Shown here in pieces: positions 44,219-59,906 of a stretch of 64,000 bases of DNA; positions within the stretch are counted from its first letter, which is position 1; every line of letters begins with the position of its first letter. A program made the position numbers and the translations under genes. The stretch spans positions 9,761-73,760 of the forward strand of contig JAIRPF010000044.1 of the NCBI GenBank assembly GCA_031257115.1, given 5' to 3'. This DNA comes from Accumulibacter sp. (lineage in GTDB: Bacteria > Pseudomonadota > Gammaproteobacteria > Burkholderiales > Rhodocyclaceae). A model generated the notes under the pieces. That model did not search any database, was not told the DNA's origin, and saw nothing but the letters and a program-made list of their open reading frames with translations.

Positions 44219-45367
44219 TTACCGCGTAAGCAGATCGACGTAGGCTTGGTAGCTGTAGCTGCGGTTCTTCTTCTGGCCCGTCACTTCCACCACCACGTCC
44301 AGTTGCTCCAGCACCCGCACCGCCGCATTCGCCGTCGGGAACGTGGTATCCAGTTGCTGCCGCGCGCGCTCCACGGTGAAGCGCGGCATCATTGGCAGCC
44401 GTTCGAACAGCCGATAGGTGGCCGGGCTGGCCTTGGACGATTGCAGCAGCTTCCGGCGGTCGGCGGCAATCAGACTGGCGATGGCGATGATGCCGCGCTC
44501 GGCGTCCGCTGCCGCGACCGCCACCGCTTCCAGAAAGAACGACACCCACGATTCCCAATCGCCCTCGGTGCGGATGACCGAAAGGCGGCGGTAATACTCG
44601 GCCTGATGCTGCTTCAGGTAGCCGCTGAGGTACATCAACGGTTCAACCAGCAAGTTCCAGTGTTCCAGCAACGCTCCAATCAGCAGACGTCCGATGCGTC
44701 CGTTGCCATCCAGAAACGGATGGATGGTTTCAAACTGCGCATGGATCAGCGCGATTTTCACCAAGGGCGGAAGATCGCCTGCTTCCCCGTGGATGAATCG
44801 TTCCAAGCTGGATAGCAGTTCCGGCACACGCTCCGGCGGTGGCGGCACGAACACCGCATTACCCGGTCGCGTGCCGCCAATCCAGTTCTGCGAATGCCGC
44901 GGTTCGCCGGGTTGCTTGCCCGCGCCGCGCGCACCATCGAGCAACAGCCGGTGCGCATCGCACAGCAGGCGACCGCTGATTGGCAGACCTTTCGGGTCGC
45001 GCAGTTGTTCCCGCACCAAGCGGAATGCCCGCAGGTAATTGGTCACCTCGGCCACGTCGTCGGTGTTGCTGACCTTGAAGCCCGCTTCCTCGTCGAACAG
45101 GTCGGTCAGCGTGGCCTGCGTACCCTCGATCTGGGATGTGAGCAGGGCTTCCTTGCGCACGGCGCTGTAGAGCAGCCAGTCCACCGACGGCACCAAGCCG
45201 GATACGCCGGACAGCCGGGCCAGCGCCAGTTCCGCCTGCCGGTTCAGGTCAGTGAACGAGGCCGCCGCCAACGGCGGATCGGCAGGTGGCAGTGGATGCG
45301 GCACGAAAGCCCGCACCGACTCGCCAAGCGTCGTGGAGGTAGCGTAAGTGCCGGTAGCGCGGTTCAT
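44219..45367 (-). CDS. Fic family protein with C-terminal HTH
   Basis: HPFLDGNGRIGR Fic motif; SSQIEGTQ (class III inhibitory motif). Confidence 0.93.
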   Translation of the reverse strand: MNRATGTYATSTTLGESVRAFVPHPLPPADPPLAAASFTDLNRQAELALARLSGVSGLVPSVDWLLYSAVRKEALLTSQIEGTQATLTDLFDEEAGFKVSNTDDVAEVTNYLRAFRLVREQLRDPKGLPISGRLLCDAHRLLLDGARGAGKQPGEPRHSQNWIGGTRPGNAVFVPPPPERVPELLSSLERFIHGEAGDLPPLVKIALIHAQFETIHPFLDGNGRIGRLLIGALLEHWNLLVEPLMYLSGYLKQHQAEYYRRLSVIRTEGDWESWVSFFLEAVAVAAADAERGIIAIASLIAADRRKLLQSSKASPATYRLFERLPMMPRFTVERARQQLDTTFPTANAAVRVLEQLDVVVEVTGQKKNRSYSYQAYVDLLTR

Positions 45368-46140: not shown

Positions 46141-46344
46141 ATGCCCAAGAACAGTAGCGAAAGCGGAATCCTGACGATCAAGGATGTCGCCGAGTACCTG
46201 AAGGTCACGGAGCGGACGATCTACCGGCTCGCGGCAGCCAAGAAGATCCCCGGCTTCAAAGTTGGCGGGATGTGGCGCTTCAGGCAGGCGGACATCGATG
46301 CTTGGATCGCCGCGCAAGCGAACAACGTGGAGGGAAGGGATTGA
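46141..46344 (+). CDS. excisionase-family (HTH_17) DNA-binding protein
   Basis: LTIKDVAEYLKVTERTIYRL...PGFKVGGMWRF. Confidence 0.85.
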   Translation: MPKNSSESGILTIKDVAEYLKVTERTIYRLAAAKKIPGFKVGGMWRFRQADIDAWIAAQANNVEGRD

Positions 46345-49280
46345 TCTCCGCCTACCACGCCAAATATTATGCCCACGAGCTGACGCGGCGGCACACCGCA
46401 GACGGCGTAGATCGCCTGTCGCAGTCGCTGTTCGACGCCAGCGTCGATCTGAACCCTCACCAGATCGAAGCGGCACTGTTCGCCATTCGGAACCCATTGC
46501 AGGAAGGCGTACTGCTGGCCGATGAAGTCGGCTTGGGCAAGACCATCGAAGCTGCGCTCGTGATCTGCCAGCACTGGGCCGAACGTCGCCGACGTTTGCT
46601 GGTGATCTGCCCCGCGAGCCTGCGAAAGCAGTGGGCACAGGAACTGCACGACAAGTTTGCCGTGCCATCCACCGTGGTGGATGCCGTCTCCCTGCGCAAG
46701 CAATCGGCGGGCGACTTTCTCGCCACCTTGCAGGGGTTGGTCGGCAAGACGGTCATCATCATGTCCTATCAGTTCGCCGCCAAGCTGGAGGCCGAACTGC
46801 GCGCCGTGCCGTGGGACATGGTGGTCATTGACGAAGCGCACAAGCTGCGCAATGCCCACCGCGCCAGCAATCGCACCGGGCAGGCGCTCAAGCGCGCGCT
46901 GGAAGGCCGCAAAAAGCTGCTGCTCACCGCTACGCCGTTGCAGAACTCGCTGATGGAGCTGTACGGCCTTTCCACGCTGATCGACGAACACCTGTTCGGC
47001 GATGAAGCCGCTTTCCGCAAGCAGTTCCTGAACAGCGGCACGGGCATGGACGAACTGCGCGAGCGCATCGCCAGTTTCGCCAAGCGCACCTTGCGGCGCG
47101 ACGTGCTGGAGTACATCAAATACACCGAGCGCAAGGCGCTGACACAACCGTTCAACCCCACTGACGACGAACAGGCGCTCTACGAGCGCATCTCGGCCTT
47201 CCTGCAAAAGGAAGACTCCTATGCCTTGCCCAAACAGCAGCGCCATCTCACCGCGCTGATCCTGCGCAAGCTGCTGGCTTCCAGTTCGCACGCGGTCTCC
47301 GCCACGCTCGTCACCATCCGCGAACGGCTGCAAGGATTGTTGACGGCGGGCAGGACGGAAGACGACGGCACAGAATTGGTCGAGCAGATCATCGCCGAGG
47401 ACGATCTGGAGCAGGACTATCTGGAAGAGGAAGCCAGCGAGGACGAGGCTGCGACCGACGACGGCGCACCCGCGTCCGGCGATGATGGCAAGCCGGATGC
47501 CGCAAGAGCAGCCAACGCCGTCCGCGCCGCCATCGCCGCCGAGATCGAGGAACTGACCGCCTTCATCGAAGCCGCGCAGGCGCTGCAAACCGACACCAAG
47601 GCGCAGGCGCTCTTGAAGGCGCTCTCGCTGGGTTTCGGCAAGATGGCCGAACTGCGCGCCCCGCGCAAAGCCATCATCTTCACGGAGTCCAAGCGCACAC
47701 AGGAATACCTGCATCGCTTCCTCTCCGCCAACGGCTACGCGGGTAAGCTGGCGCTATTCTCCGGTACCAACACGCACGAAGAATCCGCCGCCATCTACCA
47801 ACGCTGGCTGGAGGAATTCAAGGGCACGGATCGCGTCACCGGCTCGCCGCAGGTGGACAGGCGCACCGCGCTGATCGACCACTTCCGCAAGGACGACGGC
47901 ACGGGCGCGGAAATCATGATCGCCACCGAAGCCGCCGCCGAAGGCGTCAACCTTCAGTTCTGCGCGCTCATCATCAACTACGACCTGCCCTGGAACCCGC
48001 AGCGCGTTGAGCAGCGTATTGGCCGCTGCCACCGCTACGGCCAACGCTTCGACGTGGTGGTCATCAACTTCCTCAACACCCGCAATCAGGCCGATCAGCG
48101 CGTGCTGGAGCTGCTCACCAAAAAGTTCAATCTGTTCTCCGGCGTGTTCGGCGCGTCCGACGAAGTGCTGGGCCGCATCGAAGGCGGTCTCGACTTCGAG
48201 AAGCGCGTCCTCCTGATCTACGACACCTGCCGCAAGCCGGAAGACATCGAAGCCGCCTTCAACAAGCTGCAAACGGAACTGGAAGAAGCCATCGCCGACC
48301 GCATCAGGGAAACCCAGACGCAACTGCTGGAGAACTTCGACGAGGACGTTCACGACCGCCTTAAGCTGCGGCTGGACGAGGCCGAAGCCCGCCTCGACAA
48401 GCTGGGCCGCTGGTTCTGGGGCGTCACCCGCTACGCCTTGAGCGAGCGCGCCCGTTTCGACGAGCAGTCCTACGCTTTTTCCCTGAGCGCGCCGCCCGCT
48501 GGTATTGCCTCATTAGCCCCATCTGGCCGCTACCAGCTCATCCGTGGCGCGGCACAGCCGGACATGCTGGCGCACGCCTATCGCCTCAGCCACCCGCTGG
48601 GCGAATGGAGCATTAATGCAAGCCTCGGCGCATCCACGCCCACGGCCACCCTGAAACTGGACTACGGCAAGCACGGCGCGCGCATCTCCGTGGTCGAAAG
48701 ACTGCGGGGAAAAACCGGCTGGCTCACGCTGGCGCGGCTGGAAGTCAGCGCCTTCGAGACTACCGAGGCCTTGCTGTTTTCCGGCCTTACCGACGACGGC
48801 GATCCGCTGGATCAGGAAACCTGCGAAAAACTGATGAGCATTCCGGCGGCGGGCAAGCCCACCGCGCTCAACGCCGCCGTGCCGCCTATGCTGGCCGCCA
48901 ACAGCCAGCGCGCCGTGGCCGCCACCATTGCGCAGGTGCTGGAAGCCAACCAGCGCCTGTTCAATGAGGAGCGCGACAAGCTGGAACGCTGGGCCGACGA
49001 CAAACTGCTGGCCGCCGAAGAAGCCCTGAAGAACACCAAGGCGCGCATTGCCCAGTTGAAGCGCGATGGGCGCGGAGCCGCCACCTTGCAGGAGCAGGAC
49101 GGCATCCAGCGCGAGATCGCGGAACTGGAACGCAAGCAGCGCCGCCTGCGGCAGGAAATCTTCACCGTCGAGGACGAGATCATCGCCAAGCGCGACGAAC
49201 TCATTGCCTCGCTCCAGCAGCGCCTGCAAGAAAAGACATCCACCGATACCCTGTTCAGCATCCGCTGGCGGGTGTCGTGA
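46341..49280 (+). CDS. SNF2-family helicase with C-terminal coiled coil
   Basis: LADEVGLGKT, IDEAH, LTATPLQN, ATEAAAEGVNLQ, YDLPWNPQRVEQRIGR. TTG start overlaps the HTH stop. Confidence 0.92.
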   Translation: MISAYHAKYYAHELTRRHTADGVDRLSQSLFDASVDLNPHQIEAALFAIRNPLQEGVLLADEVGLGKTIEAALVICQHWAERRRRLLVICPASLRKQWAQELHDKFAVPSTVVDAVSLRKQSAGDFLATLQGLVGKTVIIMSYQFAAKLEAELRAVPWDMVVIDEAHKLRNAHRASNRTGQALKRALEGRKKLLLTATPLQNSLMELYGLSTLIDEHLFGDEAAFRKQFLNSGTGMDELRERIASFAKRTLRRDVLEYIKYTERKALTQPFNPTDDEQALYERISAFLQKEDSYALPKQQRHLTALILRKLLASSSHAVSATLVTIRERLQGLLTAGRTEDDGTELVEQIIAEDDLEQDYLEEEASEDEAATDDGAPASGDDGKPDAARAANAVRAAIAAEIEELTAFIEAAQALQTDTKAQALLKALSLGFGKMAELRAPRKAIIFTESKRTQEYLHRFLSANGYAGKLALFSGTNTHEESAAIYQRWLEEFKGTDRVTGSPQVDRRTALIDHFRKDDGTGAEIMIATEAAAEGVNLQFCALIINYDLPWNPQRVEQRIGRCHRYGQRFDVVVINFLNTRNQADQRVLELLTKKFNLFSGVFGASDEVLGRIEGGLDFEKRVLLIYDTCRKPEDIEAAFNKLQTELEEAIADRIRETQTQLLENFDEDVHDRLKLRLDEAEARLDKLGRWFWGVTRYALSERARFDEQSYAFSLSAPPAGIASLAPSGRYQLIRGAAQPDMLAHAYRLSHPLGEWSINASLGASTPTATLKLDYGKHGARISVVERLRGKTGWLTLARLEVSAFETTEALLFSGLTDDGDPLDQETCEKLMSIPAAGKPTALNAAVPPMLAANSQRAVAATIAQVLEANQRLFNEERDKLERWADDKLLAAEEALKNTKARIAQLKRDGRGAATLQEQDGIQREIAELERKQRRLRQEIFTVEDEIIAKRDELIASLQQRLQEKTSTDTLFSIRWRVS

Positions 49281-49315
49281 ACCCTGAATCACAAGATCAA
49301 AGAAATGAGTCCGCC

Positions 49316-52300
49316 ATGACCAACAAGCACAACCCAAAATTTCAGGAGCTCGTCGCCAAGCTGCGCGAAATTTTCCAGATCGACCGCCCGGAACTCGACT
49401 TCGGCATCTACCGCATCCTCAACGCCCGCGCTGGTGAGATCAACGGCTATCTGGAAAACCGGCTGGCGGAAAAGGTGCGAGCCGCGCTATCAGCGGGCAA
49501 CGCCGCCAGCGCCACGGCTTTGCAGGCCGAATTGCAGGAAGCCGAAAAGAACGCGCGGGCGCTCGGCGTCAGCCCCGATGCCGTGCCCAAGGCGCAGGAA
49601 TTGCGCGCCAGGCTGAAAGACGCCACCCAAGGCGCAAACGAACACGAAAACGCCGTGTTCTCGCACCTGCTCACCTTCTTCTCTCGCTACTACGAGCAAG
49701 GCGACTTCATCAGCCAGCGCCGCTACAAGGGCGACACCTACGCCATCCCCTACGCGGGCGAGGAGGTGATGCTGCACTGGGCCAACAAGGATCAGTACTA
49801 CACCAAGAGCGGCGAGAACTTCAGCAATTACAGCTTCAAGCTGGAAGACGGGCGCACCGTGCATTTCCGCCTCGTGGCAGCGGATACCGCCAAGGACAAC
49901 CGCAAGGACAACGACAAGGAACGCCGTTTCGCGCTGGTCGAGAAGAAGACCGTCACCCGTATCGACGAACAGGGCGACGAGCACGGGGAAGACATCCTGC
50001 CGGTGGAGGAAGTGAACGGCGCGGACGGCCGCAAGGCGCTGATCGTCCGCTTCGACTACGCCGCCCAGCCCAAAGGCACCAAGCAGGAGGCGCTGGTGAC
50101 GAAGGCAGTGGATGCCGTGCTGGCGGATGCAGCGGTCAAGGCGCGCTGGCTGGCCTTGGGCAACCTCGCACCCACGGAAAAGAATCCGCAGCGCACCCTG
50201 CTGGAAAAGCACCTGACCGACTACACCGCCAAGAACACGGCGGACTACTTCATCCACAAGGACTTGGGCGGCTTCCTGCGCCGCGAGCTGGACTTCTACA
50301 TCAAGAACGAAGTGATGCACCTGGACGATGTGCAGAACGCGGGCGCGTTCGCGGACATCGAGAAGAACCTGCGGATGATCCAGTGCCTGCGCGCGATTGC
50401 GCTGGATCTGATCGCCTTTCTCGCGCAGTTGGAGGATTTCCAGAAAAAGCTGTGGCTGAAGAAGAAGTTCGTGGTCTCCAGCCACTACTGCATCACGCTG
50501 GATCGCGTGCCGGAGGCGCTATGGCCGGAGATCGTGGCGAACGACCGGCAATGGGCGCAGTGGCAGCAGCTTGGATTGAGAGAAGTTTCGAAATCCGGTG
50601 AGATCGACGACCTTAAGCAGAACCCATACCTTCTGATAGACACGTCCCTTTATTCAGATTCGTTTGGAAGGCGCCTTCTCAGTGCGTTGGAAAACTTGGA
50701 TGTCACGTCGAATGGACTGTTGATTCACGGTGACAACTTTCAAGGGCTTAGGTTACTTGCCGAAAAAGCGCGGGGACGGATTCAGTCTGTTTACATTGAT
50801 CCGCCGTACAACACAAACGCCTCTGCGATTGCTTATAAAAACGGCTTCAAAGATTCCTCTTGGTTGTCGCTGATGGAAAGCAGGCTTTCCGCGGTACGCC
50901 CGATGTTGACCCCCAAGTCCGTGGTCTGCATCGCTATAGATGACGTGGAAGCGGCAAATCTTAAGTTGTCTGTTTCCAGACTGTTCCATGCTGTCCTCGG
51001 GGTTGCGGCTGTCAGAAGTAATCCGTCTGGCCGATCCACTCCAAAGGGGTTTGCCGAAGCGCATGAATACGCGATTTTTGCCGCTGCTGGAGAGGATGCC
51101 TCTGTGGGCAGGTTGCCTAGAAACGAGAAGCAGCTGGCGCGCTACTCAGAGACTGATGATCGCGGGCACTTTGAGTGGGTCAACTTCCGGAAGCACGGCG
51201 GAATAGAAGCCACGAGGCGAGCGCGACCGCGCATGTACTACCCGATCTATGCTTCCTCTGAAAAAGTTCGCCTTCCACAATTAGAATGGAACGAACAGGC
51301 GAATGCTTGGAACGTGCTTGAGAAGCCGCGCCAAGGCGAGCAGGTAATCTGGCCCCATAGCGAATCCGGCGATGAACTTCGGTGGAAGTGGGGAAAGGAT
51401 TCTTTCCTGGATGAAATCGAGCATTTCAAGGCACGGCCCGATCAGGCCGGAAAAATGGGAATCTACATGAAGTCACGGATGAGCGCTGACGGAATGCTGC
51501 CCGTGACTTGGTGGGATAACAAGGAATACTCGGCTACCGAGTATGGAACGAATCTTTTGACGAAGATGTTCGGGCGCATTGCGGATTTTTCGTTCCCTAA
51601 AGCGGTTCAGCTAGTGATGGACTGTTTGCGTGCGACGAATATGAGTTCTAAAGACACAGTCATCGACTTCTTCGCCGGATCTGGAACAACTGCTCACGCC
51701 GTGATTGATATGAACCGGAAGGACGGAGGGAGCCGGAAATACATCCTGATCGAACAAGGTGAGTACTTCAACAACGTGACCAAGCCGCGTGTCCTGAAAT
51801 CTGCATTCAGTCCGGAATGGAGAGACGGCAAGCCCGCGAAACCTAATACACTAGGTGCATCCCACTGCTTCAAAGTCCTCAAACTCGAAAGCTACGAAGA
51901 CACCCTGAACAACCTGCGCCTGAACCGCACATCCGCGCAGGGCGAACTGCTGTCCACCTTGCCGCAGCAAGCCCGGGACGACTACCTGCTGCACTATATG
52001 CTGGACGTGGAAAGCCGTGGCTCGCTGCTGTCGGTGGCGGATTTCAAGAAGCCCTTCGACTACACCCTGAACGTGGCCGTGGATTCAGCGGGCGCGTTCG
52101 AGCCGCGCAAGATTGATCTGGTGGAAACCTTCAACTACCTGATTGGCCTGCGCGTCAAGCACATCGACGCCCAGCCGGAGCGCGGCTTCGTCACCGTCAC
52201 CGGCACCCTGCCCAGCGGTGAAACCTGCCTCGTCCTCTGGCGCGACTGCGATGTGCTGGACTACGAAGGTATCAGCAATCTGTGCGACAAGCTCGCCATC

Positions 52301-52465
52301 AACCCGGCGGACAACGAGTTCGACGTGGTTTATCTCAACGGCGACCATAACATCCCGACCGTGCTCACCCAGACCGCCGAGGAAGGCGGAGCCACCCGCG
52401 TGTTCAAGCTGCGCCAGATTGAACCCGAATTCCTCGACCGTATGTTCAATGTGGAGGACATCTGA
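49316..52465 (+). CDS. mod: type III R-M Mod-like adenine DNA methyltransferase (long form)
   Basis: ELDFGIYRI N-terminus, YIDPPYN (motif IV) before DFFAGSGTT (motif I), i.e. beta class. Confidence 0.9.
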   Translation: MTNKHNPKFQELVAKLREIFQIDRPELDFGIYRILNARAGEINGYLENRLAEKVRAALSAGNAASATALQAELQEAEKNARALGVSPDAVPKAQELRARLKDATQGANEHENAVFSHLLTFFSRYYEQGDFISQRRYKGDTYAIPYAGEEVMLHWANKDQYYTKSGENFSNYSFKLEDGRTVHFRLVAADTAKDNRKDNDKERRFALVEKKTVTRIDEQGDEHGEDILPVEEVNGADGRKALIVRFDYAAQPKGTKQEALVTKAVDAVLADAAVKARWLALGNLAPTEKNPQRTLLEKHLTDYTAKNTADYFIHKDLGGFLRRELDFYIKNEVMHLDDVQNAGAFADIEKNLRMIQCLRAIALDLIAFLAQLEDFQKKLWLKKKFVVSSHYCITLDRVPEALWPEIVANDRQWAQWQQLGLREVSKSGEIDDLKQNPYLLIDTSLYSDSFGRRLLSALENLDVTSNGLLIHGDNFQGLRLLAEKARGRIQSVYIDPPYNTNASAIAYKNGFKDSSWLSLMESRLSAVRPMLTPKSVVCIAIDDVEAANLKLSVSRLFHAVLGVAAVRSNPSGRSTPKGFAEAHEYAIFAAAGEDASVGRLPRNEKQLARYSETDDRGHFEWVNFRKHGGIEATRRARPRMYYPIYASSEKVRLPQLEWNEQANAWNVLEKPRQGEQVIWPHSESGDELRWKWGKDSFLDEIEHFKARPDQAGKMGIYMKSRMSADGMLPVTWWDNKEYSATEYGTNLLTKMFGRIADFSFPKAVQLVMDCLRATNMSSKDTVIDFFAGSGTTAHAVIDMNRKDGGSRKYILIEQGEYFNNVTKPRVLKSAFSPEWRDGKPAKPNTLGASHCFKVLKLESYEDTLNNLRLNRTSAQGELLSTLPQQARDDYLLHYMLDVESRGSLLSVADFKKPFDYTLNVAVDSAGAFEPRKIDLVETFNYLIGLRVKHIDAQPERGFVTVTGTLPSGETCLVLWRDCDVLDYEGISNLCDKLAINPADNEFDVVYLNGDHNIPTVLTQTAEEGGATRVFKLRQIEPEFLDRMFNVEDI

Positions 52466-53595
52466 TGAACGCTCATCACAAACCACATCACCTGCAAGGG
52501 CGAATCACGGAAGTCTCCATCGAGGGTTTCCGCAGCCTGAAACGCATCGAAAAATTGCAGCTTCCGCAGTTGACGGTGCTGATCGGCGCGAACGGCGTGG
52601 GAAAATCCAGCTTCATCCGCTTCTTTGAAATGCTGGGCTGGATGCTTCGCGCCCGGAACCTGCAAGATTTCGTCGTCCGCAAGGGTGGTGGCGATGATCA
52701 GTTTTTCATGGGATCTCGCACCACGCCGCAGATCAAGGCCGAATTGCGGATCGCCACCGACAAGGGATTCAACGACTACCAGTTCGAGATGGCGCATCTG
52801 TCGGCGGGCGATACGGTGATGTTGACGCACGAGGCGTATCGGTATTCCGACGCCAGCAAATCCGGGCAGGCCAAGTGGAGCAATTTGTCGGGTGTTGGCA
52901 AAGAGTCGTCACTGCCGGATCAGGACAACAAGACGGCCAAGACCATCTACATCTTGCTCCGGCAATGTTCGACCTATCAGTTCCACGACACGTCCGCCAA
53001 CGCCTCGTTGCACCAGCGTTGGGACGTTTCCGACTTTGCGCGCCTGCGTTCGGATGGCGGCAATCTTGCTGCCGTGCTGCTCGATCTGCGCGAGAACGAT
53101 TTACCACGCTATCGACAGTTGGTGCGCCAGATTCAGCGCGTGTTCCCCACGCTGGAGGATTTCATTCTGGAGCCGGTGGCAGGCAAGGTACTGCTGCGCT
53201 GGAAGAGCAAATACAGCGACAAGGTGTTCGGCGCGCATCTGACTTCCGATGGTTCCTTGCGCCTGTTCTGTCTGCTGACGCTCCTCAGCCTGCCGGACGA
53301 ACGCCTGCCGGACATGCTGTTTTTCGACGAACCCGAACTGGGCCTGCACCCGCACGCTATCACACTGGTGTCGGAAATGCTCAAGCGCGTCGCCAAGACG
53401 CGACAGGTCTTCATCGCCACGCAGTCGCCCTACATGGTGGATTGCTTCGACTTGGAGAACATCATTGTCGCCGAAACCACAAATGGCGCGACCACGTTGC
53501 GGAATCTGCCGAAGGAGCAGTATCAGCAGTGGCTCGATGACGACTACCTGTTGTCGGATATCTGGTTGAAGACGCCGGCCGGGGTGTCTGCATGA
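52465..53595 (+). CDS. ABC-type (AAA_21-like) ATPase
   Basis: GANGVGKS Walker A, TSDGSLR signature, FFDEPELGLHP Walker B/D-loop, ATQSP. No TM segments. TGATG coupling to mod. Confidence 0.88.
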   Translation: MNAHHKPHHLQGRITEVSIEGFRSLKRIEKLQLPQLTVLIGANGVGKSSFIRFFEMLGWMLRARNLQDFVVRKGGGDDQFFMGSRTTPQIKAELRIATDKGFNDYQFEMAHLSAGDTVMLTHEAYRYSDASKSGQAKWSNLSGVGKESSLPDQDNKTAKTIYILLRQCSTYQFHDTSANASLHQRWDVSDFARLRSDGGNLAAVLLDLRENDLPRYRQLVRQIQRVFPTLEDFILEPVAGKVLLRWKSKYSDKVFGAHLTSDGSLRLFCLLTLLSLPDERLPDMLFFDEPELGLHPHAITLVSEMLKRVAKTRQVFIATQSPYMVDCFDLENIIVAETTNGATTLRNLPKEQYQQWLDDDYLLSDIWLKTPAGVSA

Positions 53596-54239
53596 TCCGC
53601 GTCTGCATCGTCTGCGAGGGCGCGACCGAAGCCGAATTCGTCAAGACTTGCCTCACGCCGCATCTGCTGAACCACAACGTCAATGCGTATCCCGAGATCC
53701 TTCAAGCGCCATCGGGACGGCATCGCGGCGGGCGCGTCACAGTCGAAAGACTGGCGCGATTCATCTCGCACGAATACCACGACACGGACCGCTTGACGAC
53801 ACTGGTGGATTTCTACGGCTTTCAGGATGCGGATGGACGCACACGGCAAGAACTGGAGACGGCCATTGCCGATGAAGTTGCGAAGCTCACCACCGGATTC
53901 GATCCACGCTTCGTGCGGCCGTATGTGCAGATGCACGAGTTCGAGGGATTGCTGTTCTCGGATGTCGAGCAGTTCCAATACGTTCTGGACGGTTGGGACG
54001 CGAATGTCCGACAGAAGCTGACGGATATTCGCGCGCAATTCCAGACGCCGGAAGACATCAACAACCACCGCGAAAGCGCGCCGTCCAAGCGGATACTTGC
54101 GACCTTCCCGAATGGAACCTACAACAAGACCGAGCACGGCCCAGTGATTGCGGAATCCATCGGGCTACCCGTGATTCGTCAGCAGTGCCCGCAGTTCAAC
54201 GACTGGTTGAGTATGCTGGAAACATGGGGGGCATCCTGA
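53592..54239 (+). CDS. DUF4276-like protein (TOPRIM-like acidic motifs)
   Basis: IVCEGATEAEF, TTLVDFYG, YVQMHEFEGLLFSD, PEDINN...PSKRI, YNKTEHG, CPQFNDWL. Confidence 0.75.
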   Translation: MIRVCIVCEGATEAEFVKTCLTPHLLNHNVNAYPEILQAPSGRHRGGRVTVERLARFISHEYHDTDRLTTLVDFYGFQDADGRTRQELETAIADEVAKLTTGFDPRFVRPYVQMHEFEGLLFSDVEQFQYVLDGWDANVRQKLTDIRAQFQTPEDINNHRESAPSKRILATFPNGTYNKTEHGPVIAESIGLPVIRQQCPQFNDWLSMLETWGAS

Positions 54240-57200
54240 TGGCACCCCCCCAAAAAACCATTAAGCGCAGCTTTCATCAGGAACTGGTGCTCAACCGCTG
54301 GGTGCTGGGCTTCTTCCACGGCGGCACGCTGGCGGCGCTCAAGATGCGCCTGGGCGATGACCGCTTCGAGGGCATCGACGAGGACGGCCAGACCAAATTC
54401 TTCCACGAGCTGGTGCGCGGCCTGTTCGACCCCAACCGCGTGCCGGAGGCCGACCTGCGCCGCTACGACCTGAACGTGGTGGCGCACTGGCAGGCCATCA
54501 CCGCCCAGCGCAACAAGCAGGAAGGCCATGAGTTGCAGATGAAGTACTTCCAGTACCTCTCGCTGCTGCTCACCGAGCTGTATCTGGACTGGTATTTCAA
54601 CCACCGCCAAGACCTGCTGGACGGCCTGAACGAGGAGATGACGCGCTACCGCGCCGAGAACGGCGCGGAGCCGTTCCGCGACTTCGAGGCGGACGACCTG
54701 AACAAGATCGCCTTCTGGAACGCCACCGGCAGCGGCAAGACCCTGCTGCTGCACGTCAACATCCGCCAGTACCTGCACTACTTTCAGGCGGGACGCGGCG
54801 ATCACTACCCCAGCAAGATCATCCTGCTTACGCCCAACGAAGGCTTGAGCCGTCAGCATCTGGAGGAGCTGCACCTGTCCGGCTTCGGCTTCGCGCAGTT
54901 CTTCAACAAGACGCAGACCCCACCGCGCGGCACCATCGAAATCATCGACATCAACAAGCTGGGCGATGAGATGGGCGACAAGACCGTTGCCGTGGACGCC
55001 CTCGAGGGCAACAACCTCGTGCTGGTGGACGAAGGCCATCGCGGCACCGGCACGGCGGCGGGCGCGTGGATGGCGCGGCGCGACGCGCTGGTGCGCGGTG
55101 GCTTCGCCTTCGAATATTCGGCTACTTTCGGGCAGGCGGTGGCCAAGGGCATGACGGTGGCGCAGGCCGAAGAGGACATCCAGAAAAAGTGCGCCAAGAG
55201 GCTGTTCAACACCACCAGTCTGCGCAGTCTGGACGACGGGCAGAAGGCGCAATTGGCGCTGACGGCGGAGGACAAGCGCCGCGCGCGCATCATCGCCACC
55301 CGCGAGATTTACGCCAAGTGCATCCTGTTCGACTATTCCTACAAGTTCTTCTACGAGGACGGCCACGGCAAGGAATCGCTGATCCTCAACATGAACGGCG
55401 AAGCCTACGAAACGGACGACAACGCCACCAAATACTTCACCGCCTGCCTGCTGGCCTTCTACCAGCAGCTTTGGCTGTGGAGCACGCACCGATCGGCGCT
55501 TGCCGATTTCAACATCGAAAAGCCGCTGTGGGTGTTCGTGGGCAACACGGTGTCGGGCGAGGAATCGGACATTCTGGAAGTGGTGAACTTCCTCGCCGCG
55601 TTCTTGGACAACGACGCGCAGATCAAGACCTGGCTGGCCGCCCTGATTGCCGACCGCGCGCAGATTCTGGATGCCAAGGGCAACAACATCTTCTGCGGAC
55701 GCTTCAAGCCCTTGATGGGCTTCTCCGGCAAGGAGGATGAACTCTACGCGGATATTCTGCTGCGCGTGTTCAATGCACCGGCCAAGCAACGGCTGAAACT
55801 GGTCAACATCAAGAGCAGCAAGGGAGAACTTGCGCTGCGCGTGGGCGATGCGGAACCCTTCGGCCTCATCAACATCGGCGACGACGCGGGCTTCTACGGC
55901 ATGGCCGAGAATGTGAAAGCCTTTGACAGCGAGCGCGACGATTTCGGCGGTGCGCTGTTCGGCACGCTGAACAACAAGGACAGCCGCCTCAACGTGCTGA
56001 TTGGTTCGCGCAAGTTCACCGAGGGCTGGAGCAGTTGGCGCGTCTCGACGATGGGCCTGCTCAACATGGGGCAAGGCGAAGGTTCGCAGATCATCCAGTT
56101 GTTCGGACGCGGTGTGCGCCTGAAGGGCAAGGGCTTCTCGCTCAAGCGCGCCTTGCCGCAGGACAGGCCCAAGGGCACGCATCTGGACAAGCTGGAGGCG
56201 CTGAACATCTTTGGCGTACGCGCCAGCTACATGGCCGCGTTCAAGGATTATCTGCGCGAGGAAGGCATCACGCCCAGCGACGAGATTCTGGAACTGGACT
56301 TTCCGACGCGCGCCAACCTGCCCACGGACAAGCTCAGGACGCTGGCGCTCAAAGACGGCTACAAGGACAACCAGAAGCTCGGTTTCAAGCGCGCCCACTT
56401 CCCGTGGCTGTATGAGATTCCGGCGCAGTTTCAGGGCAAGATCAAAGCCCCGCATGTGGTGCTCGACCTGTATCCGCGCGTCGAGGCGCTGTCCAGCAAG
56501 GATAAGGGCGCAGCACCCACGACGGAAGCGCGCAACAAAGGCAAGCTGAATCAGACGCTGTTCTCGGTTTTCAATTGGGATCGCGTCTATCTGGCCTTGC
56601 AGGACTACAAGTTGCTGCGCAGCTGGAGCAACCTGCGGTTGGAACGGCAGAAGCTGATCGACTTCTGCGCGGGCGCGCAGGATTGGTACACGCTGTTCAT
56701 TCCGGCGGCGGAGCTGAACGTGACGACCTTCGCCGATATCCGCAAGCAGGAGGACATCCTGATCCGCCTGCTGACCGACTACACCGACCGCTTCTACAAA
56801 GCCTTGAAGACCGGCTACGAAGGCCAGTTCTACGGCATCATCCACATGGATGAAGATCATGGCTCGATGCTCAAGCTGTACCAGTTCGAGATCGAGAACA
56901 GCGACGACGGGCTGGAATATCAGGCCAAACTGGAAGTGCTGAAAAAACTGGTGGCCGAAGGCAAGATCGGCGAAGCCAGCCAGTGGAACGCGCCACACAT
57001 GGTGGCCATCAGCTTCGACCGGCACTTGTACTACCCGCTGCTGGCATTGGAGGACAAGGATGCCGTGCCGCTGAAGCTGCGCCCGCTAGCCTTCGATGCG
57101 CCGAGTGAATGGGAGTTTGTCCGCGATTTGGAGGCGTTCTACAACTCTGAGGATGGCAAGGAAGCCATTGGCCATCGCAGCCTGTACCTGCTGCGCAACG

Positions 57201-57829: not shown

Positions 57830-58371
57830 GGCTTAAACAGTTTTCTTGAAATCTGCTTGAGCATGAACTACCACAAGAAAGGCTTGAAGAAGCTCCTGCC
57901 GGCGATTCTGGACAATGACGTGGGCAGGTTGGTACTCACGCACAAGGACAGGTTGCTGCGCTTTGGCGCGGAACTGGTTTTCGGCATCTGCGAGGCGAAA
58001 CAAGTCGAGGCAGTCATCCTCAACCAGGGTAAGGACACGAGACAAGGCGGCGATGCGCGGCGGCATGGTCGTGGCGGCGGACAGGTTCTTCGCAAGCTCC
58101 AAGACCTGCTCTTGCTGCGGGCACAAGCTGGAAGGATTACCGCTTTCGGTACGGGAATGGACATGCCCACAATGCGGCGCGCATCATGACCGTGACGCAA
58201 ATGCCGCGATCAATTTGAAAAATTACGCCGTGAGTTCCACGGTGTCAGTCTGTGGAGAGGAAGACGCTGGCCCCTGTCGCAAGACAAGAGCGAAACCATC
58301 CTCGGCGAAGCAGGAAACCAACAATAGACTTACTCAGTTATGAGTAGATTTGTGTAAGTTTGGTAGAATGG
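57830..58371 (+). mobile_element. internally deleted IS607-family element (TnpA and TnpB fragments)
   Basis: TnpA piece MNYHKKGLKKLL...HKDRLLRFGAELVF; TnpB C-terminus ADRFFASSKTCSCCG...WTCPQCGAHHDRDANAAINL; GG at both apparent ends. Confidence 0.75.
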
Positions 58372-58767
58372 TATCTGTTCGGTGTATGTGTTGGTCGAAT
58401 CCAGCGCGCGGGAACGAATCCTGGGCTACTACACGCTCGGCGCGGCTGAAATCGATTCCACGCTGATGACGGAAAGCGACCGAAGAAACTTCCCCGTTAT
58501 CCGGTGCCCTGTTTTCGTCTGGGCCGCCTTGCCTGCCGCGCCGATGAACGGGGGCGCGGCCTGGGCAAAAGGCTGCTCGCTTGCGCTATCGACCGCTGCC
58601 TGATCGCTCGCGCCTACGTCGCCGCGTATGCCCTGACCGTCGATGCCAAGGACGCCAACGCCAAGGCTTTCTGCGCGCATTACGGTTTCACGCCACTTTC
58701 CGGCCGGCCAATGACGATGTACCTGCCATTGGCCGCAATGCCAAAACGGACGTCCGGCGGGAGATAA
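58370..58767 (+). pseudogene. GNAT acetyltransferase toxin-like gene, 5'-truncated and frameshifted
   Basis: ILGYYTL in one frame; LGRLAC...RGRGLG...VDAKD..A..F..HYGF in another. Confidence 0.7.
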
Positions 58768-58937: not shown

Positions 58938-59249
58938 ATGCCCAAAATGGCTTCGTTCGTAGTAATGCGCGCTCTGAAGCGGTTGGGGGGCGATCTGAAG
59001 GACGCTCGCCGCCGCCGTCGCATCAAGACCGCCCTGATGGCCGAGCGCGTGGGCGTGACGCGCGCGACCCTGGATCGCATGGAGAAAGGATCGCCGAGCG
59101 TGGGAATGGGCATCTATGCCACGGCGATCTACAGTCTCGACCCTGACAAGCTCGAAGCCCTGGCGACGATTTTCGGCAACGACACGCTGGGACAGGCCAT
59201 TTCCGATCGTGAATTGCCGAAACGCATTCGCGGAAGATCGGCGCTGTGA
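58938..59249 (+). CDS. XRE-family HTH antitoxin (HipB-like)
   Basis: LKDARRRRR...MAERVGVTRATLDRMEKGSPSVGMG; GTGA overlap with hipA. Confidence 0.8.
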   Translation: MPKMASFVVMRALKRLGGDLKDARRRRRIKTALMAERVGVTRATLDRMEKGSPSVGMGIYATAIYSLDPDKLEALATIFGNDTLGQAISDRELPKRIRGRSAL

Positions 59250-59743
59250 AGCTCATCGTCACGATGGATTGGCCTCCGTGCCCCGGCAAGGTCGGGGAAC
59301 TGGAAGTGTTCAGTTCGCGCGGCGCGGAAACGTACCAATTCACTTACACCAAGGAATGGACGAAAAACGGATTTCAGATCGATCCCGCGTTGCCGCTGGT
59401 TCCTGGCCTGAAGCAACACAGCCAGAAACTTCCCGGCGCTTTCGAGGATATTTCACCGGATCGCTGGGGCCGGATGGTGCAAAAGCGCGCCCGTGGGGGA
59501 TACATGAGCGATGCCGATTTCATGGTCGGCGTCAGCGACATGATGCGCATGGGGGCGCTACGACTGGCGCGCGCCGAGTCTCCGGACACGTTCATCGCCG
59601 CCAACACCGACGTTCCAAAGCTGGTCGATTTGCGAGAACTGGAAGCGGCTTGCCTTCGCATCGAAAAAGGGCAGGAAACGGACAGTGATCTGCGCCAATT
59701 GCTGGGGCCGGGATCGTCCCTGGGCGGCGCGCATCCCAAAGCC
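59246..59743 (+). pseudogene. hipA: HipA-family kinase toxin, C-terminally truncated
   Basis: HipA N-terminal coupling region, DISPDRWGR, RMGALRL; breaks right after SSLGGAHPKA. Confidence 0.8.
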
Positions 59744-59906
59744 GGGGTGCCTGGAATCTTGCCCATCTTCGGATACGCGGACAGTTTTGCCGCCGCATCG
59801 CTGAAAAGCGCATCCAGACGGGTAGCCGCGCCTGGATTGTCAGCCGCGATGTAGTCCAAATGTCGGCACGGTCTTGTTCCGCCTCCGGCGTCCAGACAAC
59901 AATCAT
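59744..59906 (-). pseudogene. RelE/ParE toxin, frameshifted and truncated
   Basis: MIVVWTPEAEQDRADIW, then a 1-nt shift to DYIAADNPGAATRLDALF...MGKIPGT, ending at the hipA junction. Confidence 0.75.

Follow-up and report, generated by a model that had tools for sequence, protein, structure and literature searches.

A gene pair at the mod-res junction of a type III-like operon

The window analysed here, a stretch of 64,000 nucleotides from Accumulibacter sp. (GenBank assembly GCA_031257115.1, contig JAIRPF010000044.1, positions 9,761 to 73,760 of the forward strand), carries an operon of the type III restriction-modification (R-M) kind in which two additional genes, one for a soluble ATP-binding cassette (ABC) ATPase and one for a DUF4276 protein, lie exactly between the methyltransferase gene mod and the helicase-nuclease gene res. 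A listing of the open reading frames (ORFs) of the window placed six closely packed genes, all on the plus strand, between 46.1 and 57.6 kb:

46141..46344, plus strand: HTH_17 small regulator (AlpA/Xis-like helix-turn-helix [HTH] protein), 67 aa, first gene of the operon; Pfam HTH_17 1.2e-19, PADLOC mad1 2.7e-10
46272..49280, plus strand: SNF2-family helicase (DrmD-like); Pfam SNF2-rel_dom 6.1e-37 and Helicase_C, PADLOC DrmD PDLC02619 635 bits (best match)
49277..52465, plus strand: Mod, type III-like N6/N4 DNA methyltransferase, 1062 aa; Pfam N6_N4_Mtase 3.5e-24, PADLOC MTase_III PDLC03646 1155 bits, full length
52465..53595, plus strand: HEC-01A, soluble ABC ATPase (AAA_21/AAA_15 type), 376 aa, predicted sensor/regulator subunit; PADLOC HEC-01A, Pfam AAA_21 3.7e-27
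53592..54239, plus strand: HEC-01B, DUF4276 Toprim-like protein, 215 aa, predicted metal-dependent nuclease effector; PADLOC HEC-01B, Pfam DUF4276 1.2e-47
54239 (ATG)..57583, plus strand: Res, type III-like helicase-nuclease, 1114 aa; PADLOC REase_III PDLC03654 1608 bits, Pfam ResIII

The arrangement described in an initial annotation of this DNA, with the ATPase and the 215 aa protein wedged between mod and res through TGATG, ATGA and TGATG overlaps, was confirmed by the ORFs and the sequence. The mod stop and the ATPase start share 1 nt (atcTGATGaac, with TGATG at 52463-52467), the ATPase and DUF4276 genes overlap by 4 nt (gcATGAtcc, 53592-53595), and the DUF4276 stop runs into the res start through a second TGATG (tccTGATGgca, 54237-54241). 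A consensus scan within the operon detected no promoter-like or terminator-like signals above the shuffled background.

The host operon has the components of a type III R-M system, namely an N6/N4 Mod and a Res with helicase motifs and a PD-(D/E)xK-like nuclease motif; in Res, the Walker A sequence NATGSGKT, the DEGH motif and a C-terminal PDF...DPKG (PD-DxK-like) motif are invariant in seven homologues. Given the extra SNF2 helicase and HTH genes, we classify the operon from its sequence as an atypical, enlarged type III variant. The HTH gene is also kept upstream of the SNF2 gene in four related loci (L028, L031, L075 and L080). The SNF2 gene probably starts at a TTG codon at 46341, which runs into the HTH stop codon TGA (TTGA, 46341-46344) and would yield a protein of about 979 aa; the longer ORF, with a GTG start at 46272, overlaps the HTH gene by 73 nt, and SNF2 relatives have ORFs of 976 aa that align from about residue 24. 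Hma, which comprises the m5C methyltransferase HmaB and the ATPase HmaC (PMC8565338), was considered as the host system and rejected, as Mod is an N6_N4_Mtase protein and Hma has an m5C methyltransferase. Among the PADLOC matches listed, those of Mod (best 25 of 28) were only to MTase_III and MTase_II profiles and those of Res only to REase_III.

The pair corresponds to the candidate defence system HEC-01

The ATPase matched the PADLOC profile HEC-01A (PDLC04175) with an E value of 2.3e-118 and 393 bits, residues 13-370 aligning to positions 5-356 of the 363-position profile, and the small protein matched HEC-01B (PDLC04188) over its full length (6e-66, 220 bits). As HEC-01 requires, gene A is followed directly by gene B on one strand. 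HEC-01 (Hma-embedded candidate 01; PADLOC-DB v2) was defined as an ABC ATPase together with a TOPRIM protein embedded between Hma genes, the TOPRIM protein showing a conserved metal site when aligned to the OLD nuclease of B. pseudomallei (Payne, Hughes, Fineran and Jackson, bioRxiv 2024, 10.1101/2024.01.29.577857). The window pair resembles HEC-01 in the full-length match to both profiles, in gene order, in the 4-nt overlap, in the predicted ABC ATPase and Toprim composition and in being embedded in a multi-gene methylase/helicase defence operon. It differs in its host: HEC-01 was defined from the m5C-methylase system Hma, whereas the operon here combines SNF2, an N6/N4 Mod and Res in a type III-like arrangement. 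On these profile matches, the pair is assignable to the HEC-01 type, as a predicted self-contained module of an ABC ATPase and a DUF4276 Toprim protein.

The association of the two genes extends well beyond this window. A total of 1504 homologues were found at E<1e-5, and among 401 sampled genomes of the phylum an ATPase gene lay directly upstream of the DUF4276 gene in all 27 strong DUF4276 loci. The gene pair is therefore real and conserved, and not a chance neighbourhood.

Predicted fold and conserved residues

An AlphaFold2 model of the DUF4276 protein, built on a 65-sequence alignment, reached a pLDDT of 91.8 and a pTM of 0.88 and showed the element order β1-α1-β2-α2-β3-α3-β4. In a Foldseek search, its single PDB match below 1e-3 was the C-terminal (Toprim) region of the Xanthomonas OLD nuclease (6njv; E value 5.5e-4, probability 1.0). 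Residues E9, E13, D73, E116 and E118 are invariant in the 65 homologues and K166 is nearly invariant. In the model, E9 follows β1 and D73 ends β3, so that acidic residues stand after β1 and β3, as the Toprim fold requires; the canonical DxD motif is absent (D73-F-Y). Neither the protein nor its 65-sequence profile matched a PDB chain at the sequence level, which leaves the predicted structure and the literature as the basis of the Toprim assignment; a published study assigns DUF4276 to the Toprim superfamily and calls the MADS protein Mad4 a homologue (PMC12065111). According to the model, the DUF4276 protein is a predicted nuclease of the Toprim type. The initial annotation had made its reading depend on a nuclease or TOPRIM fold in this protein, and the only significant structural match of the model is indeed to such a region.

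The ATPase contains a Walker A motif (G41-N-G-x-G-K47), a signature motif (S261-D-G263) and a Walker B motif (D288-E289), all invariant in 14 homologues, and an equally invariant glutamine (Q320) at the H-loop position. Its AlphaFold2 model (pLDDT 80.3) was matched best by PtuA, an SMC head and Rad50 (Foldseek E values 1e-13 to 1e-15). A single-sequence search against PDB chains returned nothing; with the profile of the ATPase family, OLD, PtuA, AriA and GajA were found at similar weak levels, the best being the OLD ATPase 6p74 (3.8e-10). The pair is an OLD-like split ATPase-Toprim module, and the expectation of a soluble ABC ATPase with a TOPRIM-like partner held in so far as both belong to the same broad class of ATPase-nuclease systems as OLD, Gabija and PARIS.

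Relation to OLD, MADS, PARIS and PrrC

OLD and GajA likewise combine an ABC ATPase with a Toprim nuclease, and OLD turned up for both proteins of the pair, its Toprim region as the only significant structural match to the DUF4276 model and its ATPase as the top PDB chain found by sequence with the ATPase profile. In these proteins, however, the two domains are fused in one chain with a Toprim domain of family PF20469, whereas here they are split over two genes.

The MAD3-MAD4 pair of P. aeruginosa MADS is similar in that adjacent genes for an ATPase and a DUF4276/Toprim-like protein lie in a methylation-based defence operon that opens with a small HTH gene. The solved MAD3-MAD4 complex is a 2:2 heterotetramer; it hydrolyses ATP and, when Mg2+ is present, nicks plasmid DNA or cleaves it, the MAD4 pocket holding an acidic cluster (D12, D55, D81, E83, E119, E121) and K164 (PMC13662399). 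The window DUF4276 protein also has conserved acidic residues and a lysine (E9, E13, D73, E116, E118 and K166), a comparison at the level of patterns. The similarity is nevertheless distant: the ATPase matched PADLOC mad3 at 2.1e-23 and 81 bits, as compared with 393 bits for HEC-01A, and the mad4 profile did not match the DUF4276 protein. Membership in MADS was rejected, as the mandatory MAD6, MAD7 and MAD8 are absent, the six operon genes belong to other families with only mad1-like and mad3-like matches. The host here also has its own Res nuclease.

PARIS consists of the ABC ATPase AriA and the DUF4435 Toprim protein AriB, and a tree of AAA15/21 ATPase defence proteins lists DUF4276 among its domain annotations (PMC11464382). 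The window pair shares with PARIS the two-gene layout of an ABC ATPase followed by a Toprim effector. Membership was rejected all the same: the small protein belongs to DUF4276, no DUF4435 (PF14491) or AriB match was found in Pfam or PADLOC, and the similarity to AriA is generic. The PADLOC AriA profile (PDLC02980) matched the ATPase at 1.5e-26 with 92 bits, against 393 bits for HEC-01A, and is itself generic, its 304 positions equalling Pfam AAA_21 in length; the PDB AriA sequence matched the ATPase profile at 3.6e-7 over 66 residues covering only the signature/Walker B segment; AriA was not among the top 50 Foldseek matches of the ATPase model; and the ATPase has 376 aa, versus 464 aa for the solved AriA chain. 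A search of viral contigs with the DUF4276 alignment found no relatives, a weak negative that depends on two peptide patterns.

PrrC is a single polypeptide with an N-terminal ABC ATPase and a C-terminal anticodon nuclease, encoded in a type Ic hsd locus. PrrC and RloC offer a conceptual precedent for back-up defence linked to R-M, as ABC-ATPase accessory proteins encoded among R-M genes, but were rejected as identifications on architecture: the window has two genes, a Toprim effector and a type III-like host, no fused anticodon nuclease is present, and solo copies of the pair are common. The PARIS-like and PrrC-like labels first given to the pair thus found no support as far as membership of either system is concerned.

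The mod-res junction carries different cassettes in related operons

The window proteins were mapped onto 80 Res-family loci from species-representative genomes, these being the best 80 among 562 or more confirmed matches; 75 of these loci have a complete mod-res junction. As had been proposed for this locus, we compared the junctions for a variable cassette, and they vary widely. In 49 of the 75 the junction is empty, the mod stop overlapping or abutting the res start (through TGATG or TAATG in those read), and six loci whose Res is 87-91% identical to that of the window lack a cassette (L027, L030, L031, L033, L075 and L080). The HEC-01 pair occupies six junctions, in Comamonas suwonensis, Allochromatium humboldtianum, a Burkholderiales metagenome-assembled genome (MAG) and MAGs of Verrucomicrobiota, Rhodopirellula and Planctomycetota. 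The other 20 hold something other than HEC-01: PDC-S02, a PD-DExK candidate gene, in five; a RhuM-family gene (PDC-S05) in another five; and SoFic, a Ppl-like ABC ATPase, an AbiU-like gene and a possible SIR2-like gene at one junction each. Four junction ORFs of 170-286 aa had no PADLOC match (L041:9453-9965, L047:9379-10053, L091:7301-8161 and L092:9094-9951, plus strand) and are, by position, candidates for further embedded defence genes, and two junctions contain gaps of 600-740 bp with no ORF of at least 60 aa on the plus strand, the strand that was scanned. The window cassette itself sits exactly in the TGATG overlap and regenerates TGATG on both sides; no repeat or recombination-site signature was evident at its borders beyond the regenerated TGATG, no dedicated repeat search having been run.

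Several further features of these operons were observed. In Marinobacter sp. ATCH36 (L016/L065), whose Res is 80% identical, a RhuM-family gene (PDC-S05) stands at the junction instead of HEC-01, and a full-length GajA (Gabija) gene directly follows res (RhuM/GajA entry at L016:5962-7059 and L016:382-2571, both minus strand). The SNF2 and Mod matches, which overlap in the window, are separated by 1.4-3.8 kb in L053, L084, L092, L095, L101, L103 and L047, and this interval may serve as another embedding site within the operon family. The SNF2 gene lies after res, rather than before mod, in Pasteurellaceae, Neisseria, Cardiobacterium and an Enhydrobacter MAG. At L017:5751-8867 (minus strand; genome G183) the Mod frame seems split into ORFs of 862 aa and 168 aa, and the tblastn match skips residues 565-769 of the window Mod, so that either mod is disrupted at this locus or its target-recognition region differs greatly.

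Relatives of the pair occur away from R-M genes

Among near homologues with enough flanking DNA, only one locus (L022, DUF4276 87% identical) has the same SNF2-Mod-pair-Res arrangement. The P. aeruginosa copy (DUF4276 80% identical) lies in an integrative element and adjoins a resolvase, and in Pectobacterium aquaticum the two genes (DUF4276 66% identical) are inserted between glgP and glpD, in a genome in which no homologue of this Res was found. Three metagenomic or MAG copies (79-82%) are located beside a Phd/PIN pair or amid housekeeping genes and have no R-M neighbour. In the 401-genome sample, DUF4276 was present in 66 genomes (about 16%), with up to seven matches per genome, and this Res family in seven.

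Embedded pairs do not form a clade

Co-divergence of the pair with Mod/Res was considered, since a distant Res clade has a distant pair, and was ruled out by the trees. The window ATPase is 88-89% identical to solo copies, as compared with 64-70% to the embedded copies of L028 and L029, and the window DUF4276 protein is 79-82% identical to solo copies, as compared with 62-65% (L028, L029) and 68% (L034) to embedded ones. On a concatenated tree of ten proteobacterial pairs, the approximately unbiased (AU) test rejected monophyly of the five embedded pairs (p = 0.011). On a 40-row ATPase tree the embedded label needs seven changes, at least four of which are forced by well-supported branches. 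In addition, genome G070 has an embedded pair whose sister, joined to it by short branches, is the pair of G034, a genome of the same genus in the numbering of the search; the G034 pair lies beside HlyD-type genes with no R-M gene nearby. We conclude from these comparisons that the pair has moved into or out of the mod-res junction several times.

Two embedded copies have features of their own. The pair of the Burkholderiales MAG (L034:8204-9975, plus strand) is a mosaic, its ATPase being 87% and its DUF4276 protein 68% identical to those of the window, whereas other loci show similar values for both proteins; this pattern suggests recombination within the pair. The embedded DUF4276 gene of G070 (L019:13368-13862, plus strand) encodes only 164 aa and was matched by the Pfam profile at positions 1-73 and 124-192, reflecting an in-frame internal deletion of the core that probably removes the ExE acidic motif, and its nuclease may be inactive.

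Surroundings of the operon

Upstream of the operon lies a Fic/DOC gene (window 44219-45367, minus strand). Downstream are fragments of TnpB (Cas12f1-like TNB; 57915-58343), of a GNAT gene (58504-58767) and of an HTH gene with the N-terminal part of HipA (58938-59854), all on the plus strand. The flanks look like a decayed island of toxin-antitoxin and mobile-element genes around an intact defence operon. No tRNA genes were found in the window.

Discussion

The observations are, in our judgement, probably best explained by an autonomous OLD-like ATPase-nuclease cassette that has repeatedly been captured at a junction accepting many cassettes. The solo relatives, the variable junction and the polyphyly of the embedded pairs argue that the pair is not obligately tied to this R-M system. 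The cassette has inserted exactly at the mod/res stop/start overlap of an HTH-SNF2-Mod-Res operon. By analogy with MAD3-MAD4, OLD, Gabija and PARIS, an ATPase dimer would bind, restrain and regulate the Toprim subunit; a phage-derived cue sensed by the ATPase would switch on cleavage of nucleic acid, be it DNA or tRNA, and this cleavage would stop the infection and possibly the cell. Embedding would allow the pair to be co-transcribed, co-translated and co-transferred with the R-M system. The outcome would be a layered defence unit in which the pair is neither an obligate subunit nor a dedicated monitor of Mod/Res.

Several points weigh against this proposal. The structural match of the DUF4276 model to the 6njv Toprim region is modest (TM 0.42), and an hhalign comparison of the DUF4276 profile with the Toprim region of GajA yielded nothing; at the level of sequence profiles no link to the OLD/GajA Toprim was detected. 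A HEC-01 representative expressed alone protected against none of the phages tested (10.1101/2024.01.29.577857). HEC-01 is the commonest single cassette at the junction, in 6 of the 26 occupied cases, and recurs there in distant phyla (Pseudomonadota, Planctomycetota and Verrucomicrobiota), which could reflect functional synergy rather than mere tolerance of insertions. MADS defence needs mad3 and mad4, and mad5 can be deleted only along with mad2 or mad3 (10.1101/2023.03.30.534895), a precedent for coupling such a pair to an R-M-like module. Finally, for the DUF4276 loci of the 401-genome sample, being "not embedded" was established relative to this Res family only.

Three of these points can also be read in favour of a functional partner or guard, that is, a pair wired to Mod/Res that would be set off by inhibition or imbalance of the type III-like complex, whether through a phage anti-restriction protein or through loss of a subunit, on the pattern of PrrC with EcoprrI or of MAD3-MAD4 within MADS. 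The lack of defence by HEC-01 alone, its frequency at the junction and the requirement for mad3/mad4 would fit such a role, as would the translational coupling of the pair on both sides. We nonetheless regard a guard as a doubtful, if possible, explanation: relatives with DUF4276 proteins 66-82% identical have no R-M neighbour, one of them in a genome devoid of this Res family; 49 of the 75 related operons do without a cassette and 20 have one of another kind; and the window pair resembles solo copies more than it does the pairs that the most similar R-M loci carry embedded. A more specific form of the idea, which we consider unlikely, is that the mod-res overlap of the SNF2-Mod-Res family is a dedicated docking slot whose cassettes would be translated along with the restriction enzyme, and where HEC-01 would act as a PrrC-like monitor, silenced by intact Mod/Res and freed as a Toprim nuclease when a phage anti-restriction protein disables the complex. 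If true, this would explain both why HEC-01 gave no defence alone and why it is the commonest occupant across phyla. The suggestion in the initial annotation that inhibition of this type III complex is what the pair senses found no support, given the solo copies, the mostly empty or otherwise occupied junctions and the polyphyly. What the data speak against is sensing dedicated to this type III-like complex; anti-restriction proteins at large may act as a trigger, as in PARIS, since PARIS itself has no cis link to an R-M system and solo copies are compatible with such a response.

The pair might instead have no part in phage defence, being either a selfish cassette that serves addiction or stabilisation or a passenger in decay; it would then persist through its mobility and the difficulty of losing it, or just because the junction tolerates insertions. 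Its patchy and often multi-copy distribution, the copy inside an integrative element, the lack of protection by the tested representative and the internal deletion in the embedded G070 copy are what one would expect of such an element. We hold this to be improbable, given that homologues strictly keep the catalytic-type residues and the ABC motifs, that both frames in the window are intact and tightly coupled, that the other junction occupants are known or candidate defence genes and that the related MAD3-MAD4 pair is needed for defence. A true PARIS system, cleaving tRNA upon sensing Ocr-like proteins, would account for the order of an ABC ATPase gene followed by a Toprim gene and for the AriA matches, but these matches are generic and the effector is of the wrong family; together with the shorter ATPase and the weak negative in viral contigs, this makes PARIS a most improbable identity for the pair.

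The pair and its mode of embedding have already been published as the candidate HEC-01, and what we describe is no new kind of system; published surveys of embedding cover Hma, BREX, DISARM and type I hosts (10.1101/2024.01.29.577857). The present analysis adds, modestly, a second kind of host in the type III-like SNF2-Mod-Res operons, the precise point of insertion at TGATG, a tally of the occupants and phylogenetic evidence of repeated capture. HEC-01 is a widespread candidate defence system, as indicated by the presence of DUF4276 in about one in six of the genomes sampled. Within one R-M family there are operons whose junction is empty, operons that hold HEC-01 and operons that hold other cassettes; together with the solo pair they form a natural comparison set, well suited to testing the effect of embedding on activity. 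"Guilt by embedding" is thereby extended to the type III-like SNF2-Mod-Res operons, and their mod-res junction is a place to seek further defence genes.

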